Of a stretch of DNA of 64,000 nt, positions 42,420-49,171 are shown piece after piece. Origin of the DNA: Oleispira sp. GTDB lineage: Bacteria > Pseudomonadota > Gammaproteobacteria > Pseudomonadales > Oceanobacteraceae. The notes under the pieces were generated by a model, which saw only the letters and a list, made by a program, of their open reading frames with translations, had not been told where the DNA came from and did not search any database. Position numbers and translations under genes: made by a program. Location: the NCBI GenBank assembly GCA_047616865.1, contig JBLGBO010000009.1, positions 72,076 to 136,075 on the forward strand, read 5' to 3'. Positions within the stretch are counted from its first letter, which is position 1. Every line of letters starts with the position of its first letter.

Positions 42420-43295
42420 TCAATCGCAATGATGAATACTTTCATTCAATACTCGATGAAATAAAGAATTCAATAAATCTATCGAATCTCCCTTGTCGCC
42501 ATATTTCCCAGCATAGCTTTCAAGCCTTAATAACTCAGTTTCAATAAAGGTATTAATGGGTTTTATAGGCAACGACAAAGCTTTTTCTGTCTCTGCTCGT
42601 TTACGGCGTAATAATTCGTTTATGTCTTCTAGCAAGCTATCGTTATCAAGTACACGATCCAACAAAACCGAAAACTGAATCGGCGCAGGTGTTTTATAAC
42701 GTTCTAACCAGCGTATCGATAGCAAAGCCCTTAGCACATAGAGATATTTTTTATAGGGCACTTTATCTGCTTTAAGATAACCTCGGTAATTGGTCTTGGC
42801 CATGCTGTGATAATGATGAATACCTTTTTCAGCGCTGTATATTTCTGGCAATAATGCCTTAGCACTCAAAGCAAAGTTTCCTTCGTTCGTATAAACAATC
42901 GGTGAATTGATCCACTCTACAAATGACGGATTGGAATTGCTGTATAGCTTCAAGGCTTTACGCAGATCCCAGCCATTAATATCGATCTCATCTACGATGG
43001 GATATTCGATAACATCTCGTTTAGCTTCTAAATCTATGTCTATATACCAATCTTTTTTGTGTATATAGATAAAACGTACATCATAATCACTCGTCGCTGA
43101 GGCAAAACCCCAAGCACGACTCCCTGACTCAATCGCTAGCAATACTTTAACGCCGTGCTCGATTTCTGCCGCGGCGATACGGTCTAATATTTCGTCGTGT
43201 ATGTTTTTTTCTATGTGCTCTATGGCATTTATTTCCATATCCAGTTTCATTTTATTGACTTTCCTTAATATATTTTTTAACCAGGCTAATCTCAT
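42420..43295 (-). CDS. Pol-beta-superfamily nucleotidyltransferase, RlaP-like (RNA-ligase-associated NTase family)
   Basis: GSRAWGFASATSDYDVRFIY is a hG[GS]x9-13DhD minimal NTase active site. 291 aa. Last gene of the rtcBA-linked module. Confidence 0.65.
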   Translation of the reverse strand: MRLAWLKNILRKVNKMKLDMEINAIEHIEKNIHDEILDRIAAAEIEHGVKVLLAIESGSRAWGFASATSDYDVRFIYIHKKDWYIDIDLEAKRDVIEYPIVDEIDINGWDLRKALKLYSNSNPSFVEWINSPIVYTNEGNFALSAKALLPEIYSAEKGIHHYHSMAKTNYRGYLKADKVPYKKYLYVLRALLSIRWLERYKTPAPIQFSVLLDRVLDNDSLLEDINELLRRKRAETEKALSLPIKPINTFIETELLRLESYAGKYGDKGDSIDLLNSLFHRVLNESIHHCD

Positions 43296-43324: not shown

Positions 43325-44521
43325 TTATGTTCCTGACTGTCTAGTAGCAGAAGGGATTTTCACCAAATCATTCATTAAACCATCCAGCCCACCGTAAACA
43401 GAGATGTTATTAATACGGGCTGATATTTTTTCAAGTGTTTCCAGCTCTTTTAGGCGTAACAAGACAGCGTTATTTTCCATGACCTTCGCGGTATTGTGCA
43501 AGGAGCGCATCGCTTGAGTTTCTTCACGCCTTTTAATTAGATTAGCCTCAGCTTCTTTTTGCGCCTCTACTACCTTATTTAAAATTGCCTTCATGTCACC
43601 AGGCAATATAATGTCTTTGACACCCACCGACTGGACTTCAATGCCATACTCCATTAACCGAGTAGATATGCTGTTTTCTATGCATTCATTTAAGCTGTCT
43701 TTGTTTTCTAGCAACGCATCCAACGTTTGCGTACCTACGGCTTCACGTAAACGCAGCTGCATTTCGCGGTAGATAAAATCATTCATGCCATTCAATTTTA
43801 ATGCCGCTTTTTCTGCATCTACTATACAATAACTGGCACTTAGATTAATTCGCAAACTAACCCGGTCGCGCGTCAAAATCTCCTGCCCACTGACCTCCAG
43901 CGATTGTAAGCGTAAATCGATCATTTGCACTTCGATTGCTCTATTGTACTTCCAGAAACCGTACTGGCCTGGTGGCAAGAGGCGCTCATATTTACCGTTT
44001 ACAATTAATAGTGCGCAAAACTCGTTACGTACTTCAATATAACTAACGGCCTGAGCCAGTGTGTGTATTTTTTCCGAACCCGTTTGCATGATGGCATTAG
44101 CACCACGGCCTAAAAGATTCAAGTAACGACTATCGATTTGATAGCTTTCGCTGATATCAATAACCTTCACCGATACTTGTTCAGTATTTTCCATTTCATC
44201 ACCGCTAAAAAAGGCAACAAAACGACCTGGCTCCAACAGATCAACTAAGTGTCCATCACGAAAGACAAGGCCAACCTGATTATCAGTCATTTCATAATGA
44301 CTGATATAAGGCGTTAAAATTTCTGCGTATTTATTTAATAAAAACTTGGCATTATCATCTTGAAAATATAAACCTGTCACGTCGTGAATTTTTAATTCCA
44401 ATGCGCCATTGGCAGAAAATTCTCTGTACCGACCTGGCATTAATATTTTTTCAAAGCGCTGGCAGCGATATAACAAGCCTATCTGATTATCGGCGATATC
44501 ATAAGTGTTCCATAATTTCAT
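43325..44521 (-). CDS. SPFH/band-7 (slipin-like) domain protein with triplicated N-terminal SPFH-head motif
   Basis: C-terminal core GVKDIILPGDMKAILNKVVEAQKEAEANLIKRREETQA is SPFH. Three N-terminal copies of xNQxGLxxRxG...LxPGxYxF. No clear TM segment. Confidence 0.75.
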   Translation of the reverse strand: MKLWNTYDIADNQIGLLYRCQRFEKILMPGRYREFSANGALELKIHDVTGLYFQDDNAKFLLNKYAEILTPYISHYEMTDNQVGLVFRDGHLVDLLEPGRFVAFFSGDEMENTEQVSVKVIDISESYQIDSRYLNLLGRGANAIMQTGSEKIHTLAQAVSYIEVRNEFCALLIVNGKYERLLPPGQYGFWKYNRAIEVQMIDLRLQSLEVSGQEILTRDRVSLRINLSASYCIVDAEKAALKLNGMNDFIYREMQLRLREAVGTQTLDALLENKDSLNECIENSISTRLMEYGIEVQSVGVKDIILPGDMKAILNKVVEAQKEAEANLIKRREETQAMRSLHNTAKVMENNAVLLRLKELETLEKISARINNISVYGGLDGLMNDLVKIPSATRQSGT

Positions 44522-44761
44522 TTCATTTTACCTAACTCATACGAGCCATATTATATTTACTGAGGCGAGACCCTATCGGGAATGGTATGGTATTTTGCTT
44601 AGGTTAACAGGTTGATAAATACAGGGGCTACTCAGTGGTAATAACAACGGTATTCGCTTGCTATTACCATTAATTAGCATGTCGTTATCAAGTCCGCTAA
44701 CCAACCGACAAAATGCGATGCCATTGCAAATGGACCTCTATCAATTTATTCAAAGTTTAAA

Positions 44762-44826
44762 TGACTTTGTGAGGATTTGAACCTCGGGTCTTACGACCTT
44801 ACCGTAAGCCGTTGTTTAGACGGTGA
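44762..44826 (-). ncRNA. tRNA 3'-half-like element (class-II-like variable hairpin + T-arm GGTTCAAATCC + 3' acceptor strand, no 5' half)
   Basis: Reverse complement ...GGTCGTAAGACC-CGAGG-TTCAAAT-CCTCA-CAAAGTC-A. No matching 5' acceptor strand upstream. Directly abuts the tRNA-like element at 44829-44901. Confidence 0.4.
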
Positions 44827-44828
44827 AT

Positions 44829-44901
44829 GACTATCGCAGGAATCGAACCTGCACCGATCGACTTTTGTCGATTGCTCTAACTCACTGAGCTACATAGTCG
44901 C
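44829..44901 (-). ncRNA. non-canonical tRNA-like element (acceptor stem, D-arm and T-arm are good; anticodon loop has 6 nt). Candidate YrlA/Y-RNA-like RNA or tRNA pseudogene.
   Basis: Reverse complement GACTATG-TA-GCTC-AGTGAGTTA-GAGC-A-ATCGA-CAAAAG-TCGAT-CGGT-GCAGG-TTCGATT-CCTGC-GATAGTC-A. Stems pair, but the anticodon loop is 6 nt, so it is not a functional decoder. Confidence 0.5.
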
Positions 44902-45042
44902 ATTTAGGTTTTTTATCAGTGGTACACAATAAGTGAATAACCTTGCGCCAGCCTGGCATACAGAACCAGAACCATTAACTTAATAAAATATTGCCTAAAT
45001 AATTTTGTTCGAACGCTGTTTAAAACAACGCCGTCGCATTTT

Positions 45043-46086
45043 TTAATTTATCAATTCTTGCAAGTTTTTTAGGGGCGGTATATCCAGCTGCCAGCAACGC
45101 TTGTTTAATTGGTTCACTTCAATATTCAAATCCAGAAGTTGTTGAATAACGTTAATATTGGTAGTTGTATGTAAACTTGGTCGCCCTGTTTTAAAACTTC
45201 CCCCAGCAAATAACATCGGCAGTAATAATTGATCCGCCAAATATTCGCATACAGGCACTTGATTTTTCAGGTAACTTTGCACCCGCTGTTCAGCCAAGTT
45301 AGCGACCTTTTCGGCACGTAAACCTCTGCCACCCAGCTCATCAAATACTAGGGTGGTGTTCTCCATCGTCAGCTTCAGTGACAACAAATTTCCTGGCCCC
45401 GTAGACTCAACTAACTGCTCACTACACTCTTCTGGTAGCCAATGATGCTGCTGTTGTAATTGGCGTAATTCACGCACTAACACCTGCTGGGGAATTTGAC
45501 TGCCAATAGCATTGGCTTTTTTATCCACAAGTGCACCACTGTCTAATAACTGCAATGGCTCTAACACTTTGTGCGGTTTCAATTCCATCTTGATTGCACC
45601 ACCACCAGCGGGGTTAAAACCGTATTTCAATAGTTCGGCGGTGATCTGATAACCCATCTTTCTAACGGCCAAAATAAAACTGTTATTTAAAAATTCAAAA
45701 CTTGGTGCTTTGCTATTATGTGTACCGCCATTAATAATTACAGAGGATGCATGCGACTGTAATAATAGAGGCATCATTATAGTTTGTAGTACCAAGCTAG
45801 TACTGCCAGCGCTACCTACGGAAAATTCATAATCGCCGGGAATTACATTCCCTGGTTTAAAAATAACCTCTTGAGATCCCAGCTCATCACCACTGACATC
45901 TGCAGAACAAATAGTTTGTGCAGCGCGCAAGCAGGTTAAGTGCTGGCGTAACAAGCCAGGTTTTTTACGACCCCCTCGGATATTAACGATACGCACATCA
46001 AGACCTAGACACATCGCCAGGGTCAGTGTGGTGCGAAATATTTGTCCTCCACCTTCACCGGCGGCGCCATTAATTGTTCTCATCAT
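45043..46086 (-). CDS. rtcA: RNA 3'-terminal phosphate cyclase
   Basis: MMRTINGAAGEGGGQIFRTTLTLAM... aligns with E. coli RtcA [20 protein letters not shown]. The active-site His region (LQTIMMPLLLQSH) is present. Confidence 0.9.
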   Translation of the reverse strand: MMRTINGAAGEGGGQIFRTTLTLAMCLGLDVRIVNIRGGRKKPGLLRQHLTCLRAAQTICSADVSGDELGSQEVIFKPGNVIPGDYEFSVGSAGSTSLVLQTIMMPLLLQSHASSVIINGGTHNSKAPSFEFLNNSFILAVRKMGYQITAELLKYGFNPAGGGAIKMELKPHKVLEPLQLLDSGALVDKKANAIGSQIPQQVLVRELRQLQQQHHWLPEECSEQLVESTGPGNLLSLKLTMENTTLVFDELGGRGLRAEKVANLAEQRVQSYLKNQVPVCEYLADQLLLPMLFAGGSFKTGRPSLHTTTNINVIQQLLDLNIEVNQLNKRCWQLDIPPLKNLQELIN

Positions 46087-46123
46087 TCTTCCTTTAAATA
46101 CAATTTTCACTAATACTAAGTAA

Positions 46124-47350
46124 TTAACCTTTTACACAGACGACCTGTTTTAGCGTGTAGACAACTTCTACCAGATCTTTTTGCGCCTCCATTACCTTCT
46201 CAATGGATTTGTAAGCTGAAGGGGTTTCATCCAATATGCCCTCATCTGTTCTGCACTCCACACCCTCAAGTGCTTTTTTATGCTCAGTCATCGACACTAA
46301 TTTCTTAGCGGCCGTTCGTGACATCACACGTCCAGCACCATGACTGCAACTGCAAAAACTATCAGCATTGCCCAGTCCCCGCACAATAAAAGATTTTGCA
46401 CCCATGCTGCCAGGGATAATGCCCATCTCATCTTTTTGTGCCGATACCGCGCCCTTACGGGTAACCAATACATCCTTACCAAAATGATGCTCACGAGAAA
46501 TATAGTTATGGTGACAATTCACGGCTTCCACTCTTGCCTCAAACTCAATTCCCATAGTGAGCCTTACCGCCGCAATTACCCGAGCCATCATGACCTCACG
46601 GTTAATACGAGCAAAATTTTGTGCCCACTCTACCGCCTCAACATAATCAGTAAAATTATCGGAGCCCTCTGGCAAATAAGACAAATCGTTATCGGGCAAA
46701 TGTATATGCCAGCGCTCCATATCCTGCTTCGCCTTTTCGATAAAGTGCGTCCCTATACGGTTGCCTACACCACGAGAGCCACTGTGCAGCATAATCCATA
46801 CACTATTGTGCTCATCTAGGCACAACTCAATAAAATGGTTTCCCGTTCCCAACGTACCCAAATGATTCATGTTGTTGGTATTTTTCAAGACCTTATGTTT
46901 TTCTTTTAAAATATCAAACTGACCAGCCAATGGAGTCCACGCCTTAATTACATCTGCGGGTAAATCATTCCACGACCCCTTATCTCGCGCACCACGCAAG
47001 TGCCTAGAACGACCATGAGGAACGGCTTTTTCAATTGCAGAACGAATAGCAAATAAATTATCCGGTAGCTGATGAGCCAACAAACTGGTTTTAACCGCCA
47101 TCATCCCGCAACCAATATCCACTCCGACGGCCGCTGGAATTACCGCACCAATGGTGGGTACTACCGAACCGATCGTAGCGCCTTTACCTAGATGCACATC
47201 CGGCATGGCGGCAATCCATTTATGAATGAAAGGCATACGTGAAATATTTTTTAGCTGTTCACGGGCTTTGTCTTCAAACGGAACCCCTCGGGTCCAGGTT
47301 TTAATCGGTACACCACCGTCTTGCATCACTTCATAGGCTTCATCTGACAT
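46124..47350 (-). CDS. rtcB: RNA-splicing ligase RtcB
   Basis: 408 aa with PDVHLGKGATIGSV and C-terminal His/Cys metal-site motifs of RtcB. Confidence 0.95.
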   Translation of the reverse strand: MSDEAYEVMQDGGVPIKTWTRGVPFEDKAREQLKNISRMPFIHKWIAAMPDVHLGKGATIGSVVPTIGAVIPAAVGVDIGCGMMAVKTSLLAHQLPDNLFAIRSAIEKAVPHGRSRHLRGARDKGSWNDLPADVIKAWTPLAGQFDILKEKHKVLKNTNNMNHLGTLGTGNHFIELCLDEHNSVWIMLHSGSRGVGNRIGTHFIEKAKQDMERWHIHLPDNDLSYLPEGSDNFTDYVEAVEWAQNFARINREVMMARVIAAVRLTMGIEFEARVEAVNCHHNYISREHHFGKDVLVTRKGAVSAQKDEMGIIPGSMGAKSFIVRGLGNADSFCSCSHGAGRVMSRTAAKKLVSMTEHKKALEGVECRTDEGILDETPSAYKSIEKVMEAQKDLVEVVYTLKQVVCVKG

Positions 47351-47416: not shown

Positions 47417-47433
47417 AGCGATGACTATGCCAA
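47417..47433 (-). promoter_or_regulatory. sigma54 (-24/-12) promoter for rtcBA
   Basis: Minus-strand TTGGCAT-AGTCA-TCGCT has GG-N10-GC at canonical spacing, ~70 bp upstream of the rtcB ATG. The RtcR bEBP is encoded divergently. Confidence 0.45.
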
Positions 47434-47575: not shown

Positions 47576-49171
47576 ATGAAAACTGTTGCTATTAGTATAT
47601 TGGGTACCGTGCTAGATCGACGAGGAAAACGCCAAAACCGCTGGGATAAGTGGCGACCTACCGTCTCCATCTGCCAACAAGATGACTTAGTGATCGATCG
47701 TCTGGAGTTAATCTTTGATAACCATTCGCTAACCTTGGCTGAACAGGTCAAAGACGACATCGAGCAATCATCACCAGAAACCGAAGTTGTGCTCCATAAG
47801 GTTAATTATTTAGACCCATGGGACTTTGAAGATGTTTATAGCCAGCTTCTAGATTTCAGTCGAGCCTATGATTTCAATACCGATACAGAAGACTATTTAG
47901 TCCACATCACCACAGGGACACACGTTGCTCAGATCTGCCTGTATCTACTAACGGAATCTGGCTACCTGCCTGGGAAGTTAATACAAACCTCACCTTCAAA
48001 AAGTGAAAACAAAGCTAAGGGCTCTTATCAAATCATTGATCTGGATTTATCACGATATGACCAAATAGCCTCTCGCTTCAATAAAGAACATACTGAAGGC
48101 ACCACGCATCTCAAAAGTGGCATTGACACAAAAAACGAAAAATTTAATCTAATGATCGAGCAATTAGAGAAAGTATCCATTCGTTCCGATGAGCCTATTT
48201 TAATCACTGGACCAACAGGCGCAGGCAAATCGAAGCTGGCTGAGCGTATTTATCAATTGCGCAAACAGCGCGCCAAACTAAAGGGAAAACTCATTACGGT
48301 AAATTGTGCAACTTTACGTGGCGATAACGCCATCTCAGCATTATTTGGCCATAAAAAGGGAGCGTTTACTGGAGCGGCAGCAGACCGCACCGGTCTTTTA
48401 AGGGAGGCTAATGACGGTTTATTATTTTTAGATGAGATTGGTGAGCTTGGACTGGATGAGCAAGCAATGTTACTCAGCGCCATTGAAGATAAGCATTTTA
48501 TGCCACTCGGTTCAGATAAAATGGTGTTCAGTGATTTTCAATTAATTGTCGGCACTAACAGAGACTTAATTAAGCAAAGCCAACAAGGAAAGTTCAGGGA
48601 AGATCTATTAGCGCGTATTGATTTATGGACTTACCGATTACCAGCCCTAAAAGAACGCTTAGAAGATTTTGACGCCAATCTTGATTTTGAATTAGATAAA
48701 TTTTCTAGCAAGGCCGGTTACCTAGTGAAATTCAACAAGGCGGCCCGCGAAAAATATTTAGCCTTTTCTAAATCACCAGCCGCTAGCTGGAATGCTAATT
48801 TTCGGGATCTAAATGCCAGCATCACTCGAATGTCTACCCTGTCAGATGGAGGACGCATTACCGAAGACTTAGTTACTGAAGAAGTACTACGACTAAAGCA
48901 CAAATGGCGCGAGACAAATAGCACTGATCCCACACTGGTTTTGCAGTCACTGTTAGATGAGAAGACTTTAAGCGATATGGATTATTACGACCAACTTAAC
49001 TTACTTAATATCATCGATATTTGCCGCAACAGTCAATCAATGGCCGAAGCTGGGAGAACGCTATTTGACAAAAGCCGCCAAATTAAAAAGTCATCCAACG
49101 ACTCTCATAGAGTAAAACAACTACTCAGTAAGCTAGATATTTCTTTCGAAAAAATTCGACAACTGCCATAA
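47576..49171 (+). CDS. rtcR: sigma54-dependent transcriptional activator RtcR (N-terminal CARF-like domain, AAA+ sigma54-interaction domain, C-terminal HTH)
   Basis: Walker A GPTGAGKS and the GAFTGA motif (HKKGAFTGAAADR). 531 aa, divergent from rtcB. Confidence 0.9.
   Translation: MKTVAISILGTVLDRRGKRQNRWDKWRPTVSICQQDDLVIDRLELIFDNHSLTLAEQVKDDIEQSSPETEVVLHKVNYLDPWDFEDVYSQLLDFSRAYDFNTDTEDYLVHITTGTHVAQICLYLLTESGYLPGKLIQTSPSKSENKAKGSYQIIDLDLSRYDQIASRFNKEHTEGTTHLKSGIDTKNEKFNLMIEQLEKVSIRSDEPILITGPTGAGKSKLAERIYQLRKQRAKLKGKLITVNCATLRGDNAISALFGHKKGAFTGAAADRTGLLREANDGLLFLDEIGELGLDEQAMLLSAIEDKHFMPLGSDKMVFSDFQLIVGTNRDLIKQSQQGKFREDLLARIDLWTYRLPALKERLEDFDANLDFELDKFSSKAGYLVKFNKAAREKYLAFSKSPAASWNANFRDLNASITRMSTLSDGGRITEDLVTEEVLRLKHKWRETNSTDPTLVLQSLLDEKTLSDMDYYDQLNLLNIIDICRNSQSMAEAGRTLFDKSRQIKKSSNDSHRVKQLLSKLDISFEKIRQLP

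Follow-up and report, generated by a model that had tools for sequence, protein, structure and literature searches.

A non-decoding tRNA-like element at the core of a large covarying RNA beside an SPFH gene in an rtcBA RNA-repair operon

Results

Genes and RNA features of the rtcA–SPFH gap

The 64,000-nucleotide (nt) stretch of Oleispira sp. contig JBLGBO010000009.1 analyzed here (hereafter, the window) carries an RNA-repair operon, and this report concerns the 520-nt gap between its rtcA gene and the gene of an SPFH/Band-7 protein. An earlier note, made from the sequence alone, had described two tandem tRNA-like elements in this gap: a near-perfect cloverleaf (element B) and, directly 3′ of it, a partial module (element A). 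Both belong to one structured RNA that spans approximately positions 45020 to 44567 of the minus strand (about 430 nt in the window and 500–560 nt in relatives). Element B is a member of the predicted b7a-tRNA ("band 7-associated tRNA") of RNA-repair operons, and the b7a-tRNA is real, conserved over three proteobacterial classes, non-decoding, and the core of a large covarying RNA. The parts of the RNA in 5′ to 3′ order, followed by the neighboring genes, are listed below.

44900–45020, minus strand: 5′ domain (D1), from RNAalifold covariation and model R2
44828–44899, minus strand: tRNA-like core (element B), a full cloverleaf with the 6-nt anticodon loop CAAAAG and no encoded CCA, from Rfam tRNA, ARAGORN, and covariation
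44809–44823, minus strand: H1 of element A, anticodon-arm-like hairpin CCGT-CTAAACA-ACGG with a 7-nt loop (R1 helix 1; 5 of 5 pairs changed on both sides, 91.4% paired)
44787–44798, minus strand: H2 of element A, GNRA-type hairpin GGTC-GTAA-GACC (R1 helix 2; 4 of 4 pairs covary, 99.5% paired)
44771–44785, minus strand: T2 of element A, T-arm-like hairpin GAGG-TTCAAAT-CCTC (R1 helix 3; 100% paired, 2 of 4 pairs covary, GGTTC[G/A]A loop conserved)
44751–44769, minus strand: H3 of element A, hairpin CAAAGT-CATTTAA-ACTTTG (R1 helix 4; 5 of 5 pairs covary)
44567–44738, minus strand: 3′ domain (D4), about 172 nt, with the long-range helix GAGGTCC (44738–44732)/GGGTCTC (44573–44567)
47576–49171, plus strand: rtcR, sigma-54 activator with an RtcR/CARF-type N-terminal domain (NCBIfam RNA_repair_RtcR, 759 bits; Pfam RtcR and Sigma54_activat)
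47418–47432, minus strand: candidate sigma-54 promoter TGGCATAGTCATCGC, GG-N10-GC, about 68 nt 5′ of rtcB (pattern match with 2 mismatches)
46124–47350, minus strand: rtcB, RNA ligase (Pfam RtcB, E = 3.3e-127)
45043–46110, minus strand: rtcA, RNA 3′-phosphate cyclase (Pfam RTC, E = 4.3e-72; NCBIfam equivalog)
43325–44521, minus strand: SPFH/Band-7 "slipin" protein of 398 amino acids (two extra N-terminal beta units, SPFH domain, and long helix)
42420–43295, minus strand: RlaP nucleotidyltransferase, PF10127 (Pfam RlaP, E = 1.9e-81)

For comparison, 80 related loci were fetched of approximately 550 genome loci that were found on one-genome-per-species contigs with the SPFH protein alone as the query. 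Their sources were Cellvibrionaceae, Microbulbifer, Halieaceae, Kangiellaceae, Enterovibrio, Arenimonas, and alpha- and beta-proteobacteria; SPFH identity among the related loci was 40–60%, and their gene orders differed. The two closest relatives recovered, L081 and L082, encode SPFH proteins 84% and 89% identical to that of the window. For the cultivable Saccharophagus degradans and Microbulbifer spp., this identity is 58–60%. The SPFH frame of L082 (L082:3112-4307, a Logan contig) is split into open reading frames (ORFs) of 76 and 247 amino acids by a frameshift/pseudogene or an assembly error. The tRNA-like genes in the fetched loci were called by ARAGORN. Covariation was counted on alignments as pairs with compensatory changes, that is, with both sides changed. 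Structure-blind alignments were made of 78 members for the cloverleaf, of 36 loci for D1 (by MAFFT), and of 37 sequences for the boxes of the long-range helix.

A conserved cloverleaf that does not decode

The Rfam tRNA model (RF00005) matched the minus strand at 44828–44899 end to end, over model positions 1–71, with 51.2 bits (gathering score, 29; E = 4.7e-08), and this was the sole gathering-level Rfam match across the 64-kb window. No other Rfam 15 family gave anything credible over 44300–45300 at E ≤ 10. ARAGORN reported the same interval as "tRNA-???" because the anticodon loop is abnormal. From 44899 to 44828, the minus strand reads GACTATG-TA-GCTC-AGTGAGTTA-GAGC-A-ATCGA-CAAAAG-TCGAT-CGGT-GCAGG-TTCGATT-CCTGC-GATAGTC-A, in which the D-stem (GCTC/GAGC), the anticodon arm, and the T-arm (GCAGG-TTCGATT-CCTGC) are directly visible just as the earlier note had given them. 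Folded alone, the element formed the cloverleaf at −25.1 kcal/mol (z = −3.36). The model match, the ARAGORN call, and the fold bear out the description of a near-perfect cloverleaf, but the span and the acceptor stem of the earlier note (44829–44901, 7 bp) needed correction: the acceptor stem consists of six Watson–Crick pairs and a G·G mismatch at pair 7–66. The discriminator A is followed by TTCACC, and hence CCA is not encoded; many relatives have ACC or ACCA at that point. The element ends 306 nt 5′ of the SPFH start on the same strand.

Across the 78 aligned members, 93.7% of the cloverleaf was paired and 16 of 21 pairs covaried. The D-stem GCUC/GAGC (columns 11–14 and 24–27 of alignment A9; window 44889–44886 and 44878–44875) was invariant in 76 of 76 distinct family sequences from three proteobacterial classes, while every other stem covaried. 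To judge from this pattern, the invariant D-stem hints at sequence-specific recognition of the D-arm.

The anticodon arm of the window copy, ATCGA-CAAAAG-TCGAT, is a closed 5-bp stem with a loop of 6 nt. The earlier note had concluded from this loop that the element cannot decode, with the proviso that an indel or a sequence error might underlie it. Both L081 and L082 also possess 6-nt loops, and the stem of L082 carries the compensatory change ATCGG/CCGAT; therefore, the loop is not a sequencing error. Because of the 6-nt loop and the lack of an encoded CCA, the window copy is certainly incapable of decoding. The 7-nt loop, U33, and readable anticodon of a canonical decoding tRNA are not found together in it.

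Over the 80 members of the family, the loop ranged from 4 to 8 nt (7 nt in 59 members, 6 nt in 12, 5 nt in 4, 4 nt in 4, and 8 nt in 1), with the 5-bp stem retained. Twenty-one of the 80 loops thus differ from 7 nt in length, and many of the 7-nt loops lack U33. The family as a whole is therefore under no selection to decode. The commonest loop was CUCAUAA, the loop of tRNAs with a CAU anticodon (21 members), and the cloverleaf was probably derived from a CAU-anticodon tRNA. Several loops of the family coincide with textbook Lys(UUU), Asn(GUU), Ile(GAU), or Met(CAU) loops. The occurrence of a short loop was not significantly related to the presence of RlaP (6 of 14 loci versus 15 of 67, phylogeny not being corrected for).

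Element A is a module of four hairpins

Directly 3′ of the cloverleaf lies element A, for which covariance model R1 was built from 13 sequences. R1 gave a single match in the window (44728–44827, 87.6 bits) and one match per locus in 49 related loci, each directly 3′ of the tRNA-like element. On the alignment fitted by R1, 94.3% of the cells were paired and 16 of 18 pairs covaried, while sliding the partner strand by 1–3 columns lowered the pairing to 37–53%. Elements A and B are both well above chance.

The earlier note had read element A as a variable hairpin, a T-arm, and a 3′ acceptor strand with no 5′ half. Its hairpin GGTC-GTAA-GACC and its T-arm-like hairpin are present and conserved. 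H1 had been overlooked, and the supposed acceptor strand CAAAGTC (44769–44763) is instead the 5′ arm of H3, a local covarying hairpin that carries the compensatory pair CAAAGA/TCTTTG in L082. RNAalifold once paired CAAAGTCA with the 5′ acceptor strand of element B. We rejected CAAAGTCA as a 3′ acceptor strand, since H3 covaries and is kept in L020 (CATGT/ACATG) and L017 (CAGGA/TCCTG), where pairing with their own 5′ acceptor strand is impossible. The likeness of CAAAGTCA to an acceptor strand probably reflects the shared ancestry of tandem tRNA-like modules and not an alternative fold.

The tandem arrangement itself stood up to comparison with the related loci, in which the second module and the tRNA-like fold are conserved. 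In 10 of 11 distant loci, from alpha-proteobacteria, Enterovibrio, and Arenimonas, two complete Rfam-level tRNA-like elements lie 1–6 nt apart. The second module is reduced in the clade of the window, and the family can fairly be said to have two tRNA-like modules in tandem. Where both elements are complete (L059, L061, L065, L067, L068, L069, L071, L072, L074, and L075), the same 5′ domain lies upstream, and the acceptor stem of the second element is often weak (Rfam model positions 3–68 or 4–67).

Covarying 5′ and 3′ domains flank the tRNA-like modules

D1 runs from just past the rtcA stop codon to 2 nt before the tRNA-like element. Its closing helix P1 pairs ATTTAGG (45000–44994) with CCTAAAT (44908–44902) and encloses three further helices. 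On the structure-blind alignment, 22 of 30 pairs predicted by RNAalifold showed compensatory changes. Model R2 matched the window at 44899–45020 (79.2 bits, E = 3.8e-18) and gave one match each in 72 sources (the window and 71 fetched loci), always 5′ of the tRNA-like element and including distant alpha- and beta-proteobacterial loci and two loci in which ARAGORN called no tRNA. On the alignment fitted by R2, 94.2% of the cells were paired and 23 of 30 pairs covaried. The TGGCAC of the 5′ domain was considered as a sigma-54 promoter and rejected, since there is no GC at −12 and the bases sit in a covarying helix.

On the 3′ side, a conserved box GAGGYCCA (window 44738–44732) pairs with the distal box TGGGCCTC (window GGGTCTC, 44573–44567) and closes D4, which is 166–295 nt long in the family, the 172 nt of the window being among the shortest. 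In the 37 structure-blind sequences, 99.7% of the cells of this long-range helix were paired and 7 of 8 pairs covaried, for example as GAGGCTCA/TGAGCCTC, GAGGTTCA/TGAACCTC, and GGAGTCCA/TGGACTCC; with the partner slid, at most 51% were paired. In Kangiellaceae, the equivalent long-range pairing is formed from a different sequence, GGGCTTC/GAAGCCC. The alignment of the D4 interior was too gappy to yield a reliable consensus. The conserved box AGAGGYCCATGG was also considered as a ribosome-binding site with the start of a small ORF; this was rejected, since several loci, the window among them, have ATT, ATA, or ACT in place of the ATG, and the pairing of the box with its distal partner counters it as well.

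The 446-nt RNA of the window as a whole folds with z = −4.46, and its flanking domains match no family in Rfam 15. Between the end of the long-range helix and the start codon of SPFH are 45 nt. The family shows a stretch of variable length (approximately 20–190 nt) and sequence between the 3′ box and the ribosome-binding site of SPFH, with no conserved element that would sequester this site. In some relatives, an extra GC-rich hairpin with a T-run lies in this stretch, as in L013 (GTGGCACTTCCATGTGCCAC-TTTTT, approximately 60–120 nt 5′ of the SPFH start); none was found in the window. A hairpin of the L013 type may be a terminator or attenuator that gives the RNA a transcript end of its own.

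The RNA is strictly linked to the SPFH gene

A same-strand tRNA-like gene lies 190–640 nt 5′ of the SPFH start in 77 of the 80 loci. The three exceptions are a contig that starts at the SPFH gene, a rearranged copy (L036), and L054, in which the model searches found the 5′ domain but not the tRNA-like element. In L036 (L036:5620-5700, Microbulbifer echini), which both ARAGORN and Rfam missed, the first module's D-arm runs into a lone T-arm with H3 directly after it, and the 5′ domain is intact. The arrangement looks like a deletion between two repeated T-arm modules.

Reordering or absence of rtcB, rtcA, and rlaP leaves the RNA and the SPFH gene adjacent, and the RNA accompanies SPFH even in loci with none of the repair genes upstream. 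Under a strict tblastn filter, at least 54 of 82 loci had RtcB no more than 6 kb away.

At least 14 of the related RtcB/SPFH loci (L001, L006, L013, L014, L026, L027, L028, L044, L046, L048, L057, L063, L064, and L066) also contain arrays of 3–18 same-strand tRNA genes, which the window does not have. The array tRNAs sit between rtcB/rtcA and the tRNA-like RNA or 3′ of SPFH, and CCA is encoded in the sequences read. The recurrent types, Asn, Gln, Lys, His, Pro, Cys, and Arg, are typical targets of anticodon nucleases. The presence of such arrays in repair loci looks like a "repair plus replace" arrangement.

The operon and its SPFH protein

The rtcR gene is oriented divergently to the rtcB–rtcA–[RNA]–SPFH–rlaP operon, which is flanked by housekeeping genes (a solute-binding protein gene, kdsA, proB, and obg). 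No integrase was found among the operon and flanking genes. The sigma-54 pattern matches in the window do not exceed the number expected by chance, and the candidate promoter of rtcB is backed only by its position between rtcR and rtcB. Within the rtcA–SPFH gap, no sigma-70 promoter or intrinsic terminator stands out, and a sigma-54 promoter directly 5′ of D1 is absent in 64 of 67 loci, which fits co-transcription of the RNA with the operon. RlaP extends damaged 3′ ends of RNA by one or two nucleotides (PMC12776372), and damaged tRNAs activate RtcR (PMC7790460); these two activities place the operon in tRNA repair.

The fold of the SPFH protein matches stomatin, HflK/C, prohibitin, flotillin, and the major vault protein; those of the matches that are solved structures form rings or cages. 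Stomatin, HflK/C, and prohibitin are anchored in the membrane, whereas the SPFH protein has no hydrophobic segment; it is soluble and probably cage-forming. Its N-terminal 160 residues (1–160) resemble the first beta-hairpin unit of the SPFH domain in two additional copies, and the motif DNQxGLxxRxGxxxxxLxPGR is present three times in the protein.

Discussion

Relation to the predicted b7a-tRNA

[quoted passage not shown] According to the same part, occasional swaps between b7a-tRNA and YrlA and between Band-7 and Rsr suggest functional equivalence (10.1101/312249). Element B shares the adjacency to a Band-7/SPFH gene, the association with an RtcB operon, and the tRNA-like cloverleaf with this prediction, and the 77 of 80 loci likewise match a tRNA-like RNA adjoining Band-7 and RtcB. 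The likeness to an authentic tRNA fails in the window copy at the 6-nt anticodon loop. In addition, the b7a-tRNA as described in 10.1101/312249 is tRNA-sized, whereas here it is the core of an RNA of about 430 nt. The 5′ domain, the half-tRNA module, the long-range helix, the dimers, and the loop variation appear to go beyond that description, and what was a one-line prediction of 2016 becomes a defined RNA with testable boundaries and helices.

A proposed role in RNA repair

RtcB/RtcA operons occur widely, but little is understood of the substrates they act on in nature or of their accessory factors. In recent work on the rtc locus of P. aeruginosa, the SPFH protein is ignored and the RNA never mentioned. 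Current pipelines miss the RNA or call it an odd tRNA, because Rfam has no family for it and PGAP annotates no RNA at the E. coli slipin gene described below.

We lean, with some reserve, toward a function as a co-transcribed scaffold or cofactor RNA for the SPFH protein in RtcB-based RNA repair. This proposal draws on the strict linkage of RNA and SPFH, the amount of covarying structure, the lost decoding constraint, and the swaps of b7a-tRNA with YrlA and of Band-7 with Rsr mentioned in 10.1101/312249. The gap would give rise to one multi-domain RNA as part of an rtcB–rtcA–[RNA]–SPFH–rlaP transcript under RtcR/sigma-54 control and may be processed. The center of this RNA would be the b7a-tRNA cloverleaf with the geometry of the acceptor, D, anticodon-stem, and T-arms retained, and D1, element A, and the 3′ domain may dock the RNA onto an oligomer of the soluble SPFH protein. 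The resulting ribonucleoprotein (RNP) would present the tRNA-shaped module to RtcB, RtcA, or RlaP or to their damaged-tRNA substrates, in analogy with the action of Y RNA with Ro60 in rsr–yrlBA–rtcBA operons. If the RNA is indeed tied to a cage-type protein and to RNA repair, it would offer a direct handle on the recognition and repair of damaged tRNAs.

More tentatively, and with less confidence than even odds would warrant, the whole rtcA–SPFH RNA may represent an undescribed class of large multi-domain ncRNA (approximately 430–560 nt) that has one or two tRNA-shaped modules at its heart and works with a soluble, vault-like SPFH cage in a repair RNP, its freely evolving anticodon loop serving as a bait or mimic for toxins that target tRNA. 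Large structured bacterial ncRNAs are rare. The eukaryotic vault particle, made of the major vault protein and vault RNA, is a near system here in that the major vault protein is among the fold matches of the SPFH protein; if such an RNP exists, it would be a bacterial counterpart of both the Ro–Y RNA and the vault particles. GOLLD, ROOL, OLE, and raiA are ncRNAs of several hundred nucleotides with many covarying helices, and GOLLD and ROOL are often found beside tRNA genes. The RNA described here has a similar large multi-helix covarying build and, like them, no coding potential, but the Rfam models of these four RNAs do not match it.

Alternative explanations

An anticodon loop that varies in length and sequence within a conserved stem and cloverleaf could reflect an arms race. 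The RNA would then lure anticodon nucleases (for example, PrrC/RloC, colicin E5/D-like, or VapC-like enzymes) as a bait or decoy, acting as an uncleavable sponge or, when cleaved, as a reporter of attack. The textbook Lys(UUU), Asn(GUU), Ile(GAU), and Met(CAU) loops are those of typical anticodon-nuclease targets, and the spare tRNA arrays in related loci point to a context of tRNA attack. [quoted passage not shown] However, plain loss of constraint accounts equally well for the loop variation, and about half of the loops mimic no real anticodon loop, being 4–6 or 8 nt long or lacking U33. Short loops showed no significant relation to RlaP, and a decoy leaves unexplained the approximately 350 nt of flanking structure and the strict linkage to SPFH. 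We therefore regard a decoy function as unlikely.

The intercistronic position of the RNA in one operon, with no outstanding internal promoter or terminator, raises a different explanation, in which the element acts in cis only: as RNase P/RNase Z "punctuation" it would split rtcBA from SPFH–rlaP and tune the stability or translation of the downstream part, with no trans-acting RNA. A 7-bp acceptor stem with a T-arm is a major determinant for RNase P, and the M. smegmatis YrlA with such a stem is cleaved by RNase P and receives CCA (PMC4201824). The end of the long-range helix 45 nt before the SPFH start codon would also fit. On the other hand, a covarying multi-domain structure of approximately 430–560 nt far exceeds the needs of a processing site, the stretch from the 3′ box to the ribosome-binding site varies and holds no conserved element to sequester that site, and the RNA is found with SPFH even where repair genes are missing upstream. 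Processing would, moreover, also be compatible with the scaffold model. A purely cis-acting element appears quite unlikely. It and the decoy are the two serious rivals, but the scaffold model explains the large conserved flanks better than either, and both are partly compatible with it.

It is highly improbable that a tRNA gene in decay, a pseudogene, or what is left of an integrase attachment (att) site lies in the operon by chance, as the earlier note had offered as an alternative. The lack of an encoded CCA and the 6-nt loop would suit such a remnant, and element A superficially resembles a duplicated tRNA 3′ half as found at att sites. Position, strand, and fold are nevertheless kept in 77 of 80 loci over three proteobacterial classes, every stem that varies shows compensatory changes, and the flanking RNA domains covary to form a larger RNA. 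An att site or integrative island was rejected because elements A and B have T-arms of different sequence, which excludes an att duplication, because the module is conserved in 50 sources, and because the neighbors are housekeeping genes, the solute-binding protein gene and kdsA forming the flanks, with no integrase seen. A recent spread on a mobile island is countered by the SPFH identity of 40–60% and the differing gene orders.

The earlier note had likened the elements to YrlA-type Y RNAs. What survives of this is a non-decoding tRNA mimic built into an rtcBA–SPFH operon; membership in the Y RNAs themselves was rejected. Resemblance to the YrlA/YrlB pair, a tRNA-like RNA and a T-arm-bearing RNA processed from one precursor (Chen et al. 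2014, PMC4201824), extends to the D-arm, T-arm, and acceptor stem, to the setting in an RtcR-controlled RtcB/RtcA operon just 5′ of the gene of a ring- or cage-type partner, and to the pairing of two non-decoding modules, one tRNA-like and the other with a T-arm only; D. radiodurans Yrn1 likewise has a 6-nt "anticodon loop." The architecture differs, however. Y RNAs are 80–130 nt long and have a long terminal 5′/3′ stem with a Ro60 site and an open anticodon arm leading to the Ro-binding helix, whereas the RNA described here is far larger, has no such terminal stem, and has a complete, closed anticodon arm. The motif GNCGAAN0-1G was not seen near element B on reading the sequence, and no TROVE/Rsr protein was found by a Pfam scan of 8 operon and flanking proteins and 10 further large ORFs of the window. 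That the RNA is nonetheless a YrlA-type Y RNA bound by a Ro60 (Rsr) protein encoded elsewhere in the genome is barely credible, despite its tRNA-like fold and rtcBA setting, given that even at E ≤ 10 no Rfam family except tRNA gave a credible match over 44300–45300, and that the invariant genomic partner is SPFH and not Rsr.

Phage and E. coli relatives of the SPFH gene

A phage origin was considered and rejected: tblastn of the SPFH protein against phage records returned one weak partial match only, and a degenerate 5′-domain pattern hit 92 viral stretches, 0 of which were confirmed by the covariance model.

In 1625 of 5426 complete E. coli genomes, slipin and nucleotidyltransferase genes lie between yjbD and lysC (for example, L083:5445-7900 of STEC639 and L084 of WAT, NZ_CP012380.1 4474082-4476006). 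This slipin is 39% identical to the SPFH protein of the window; a zeta-toxin gene adjoins the cassette, which has no RtcB. ARAGORN, Rfam, and models R1 and R2 detected no tRNA-like element and no 5′ domain in the gap 5′ of the E. coli slipin gene, where PGAP annotates no RNA gene. This 530-nt upstream gap contains a good match to a sigma-54 promoter, TGGCACGCTTCTCGCA (L083:5661-5676), and a lone T-arm-like hairpin, TGGGTTCGATTCCCA (L083:5786-5800, E = 0.4), which is followed by another hairpin.

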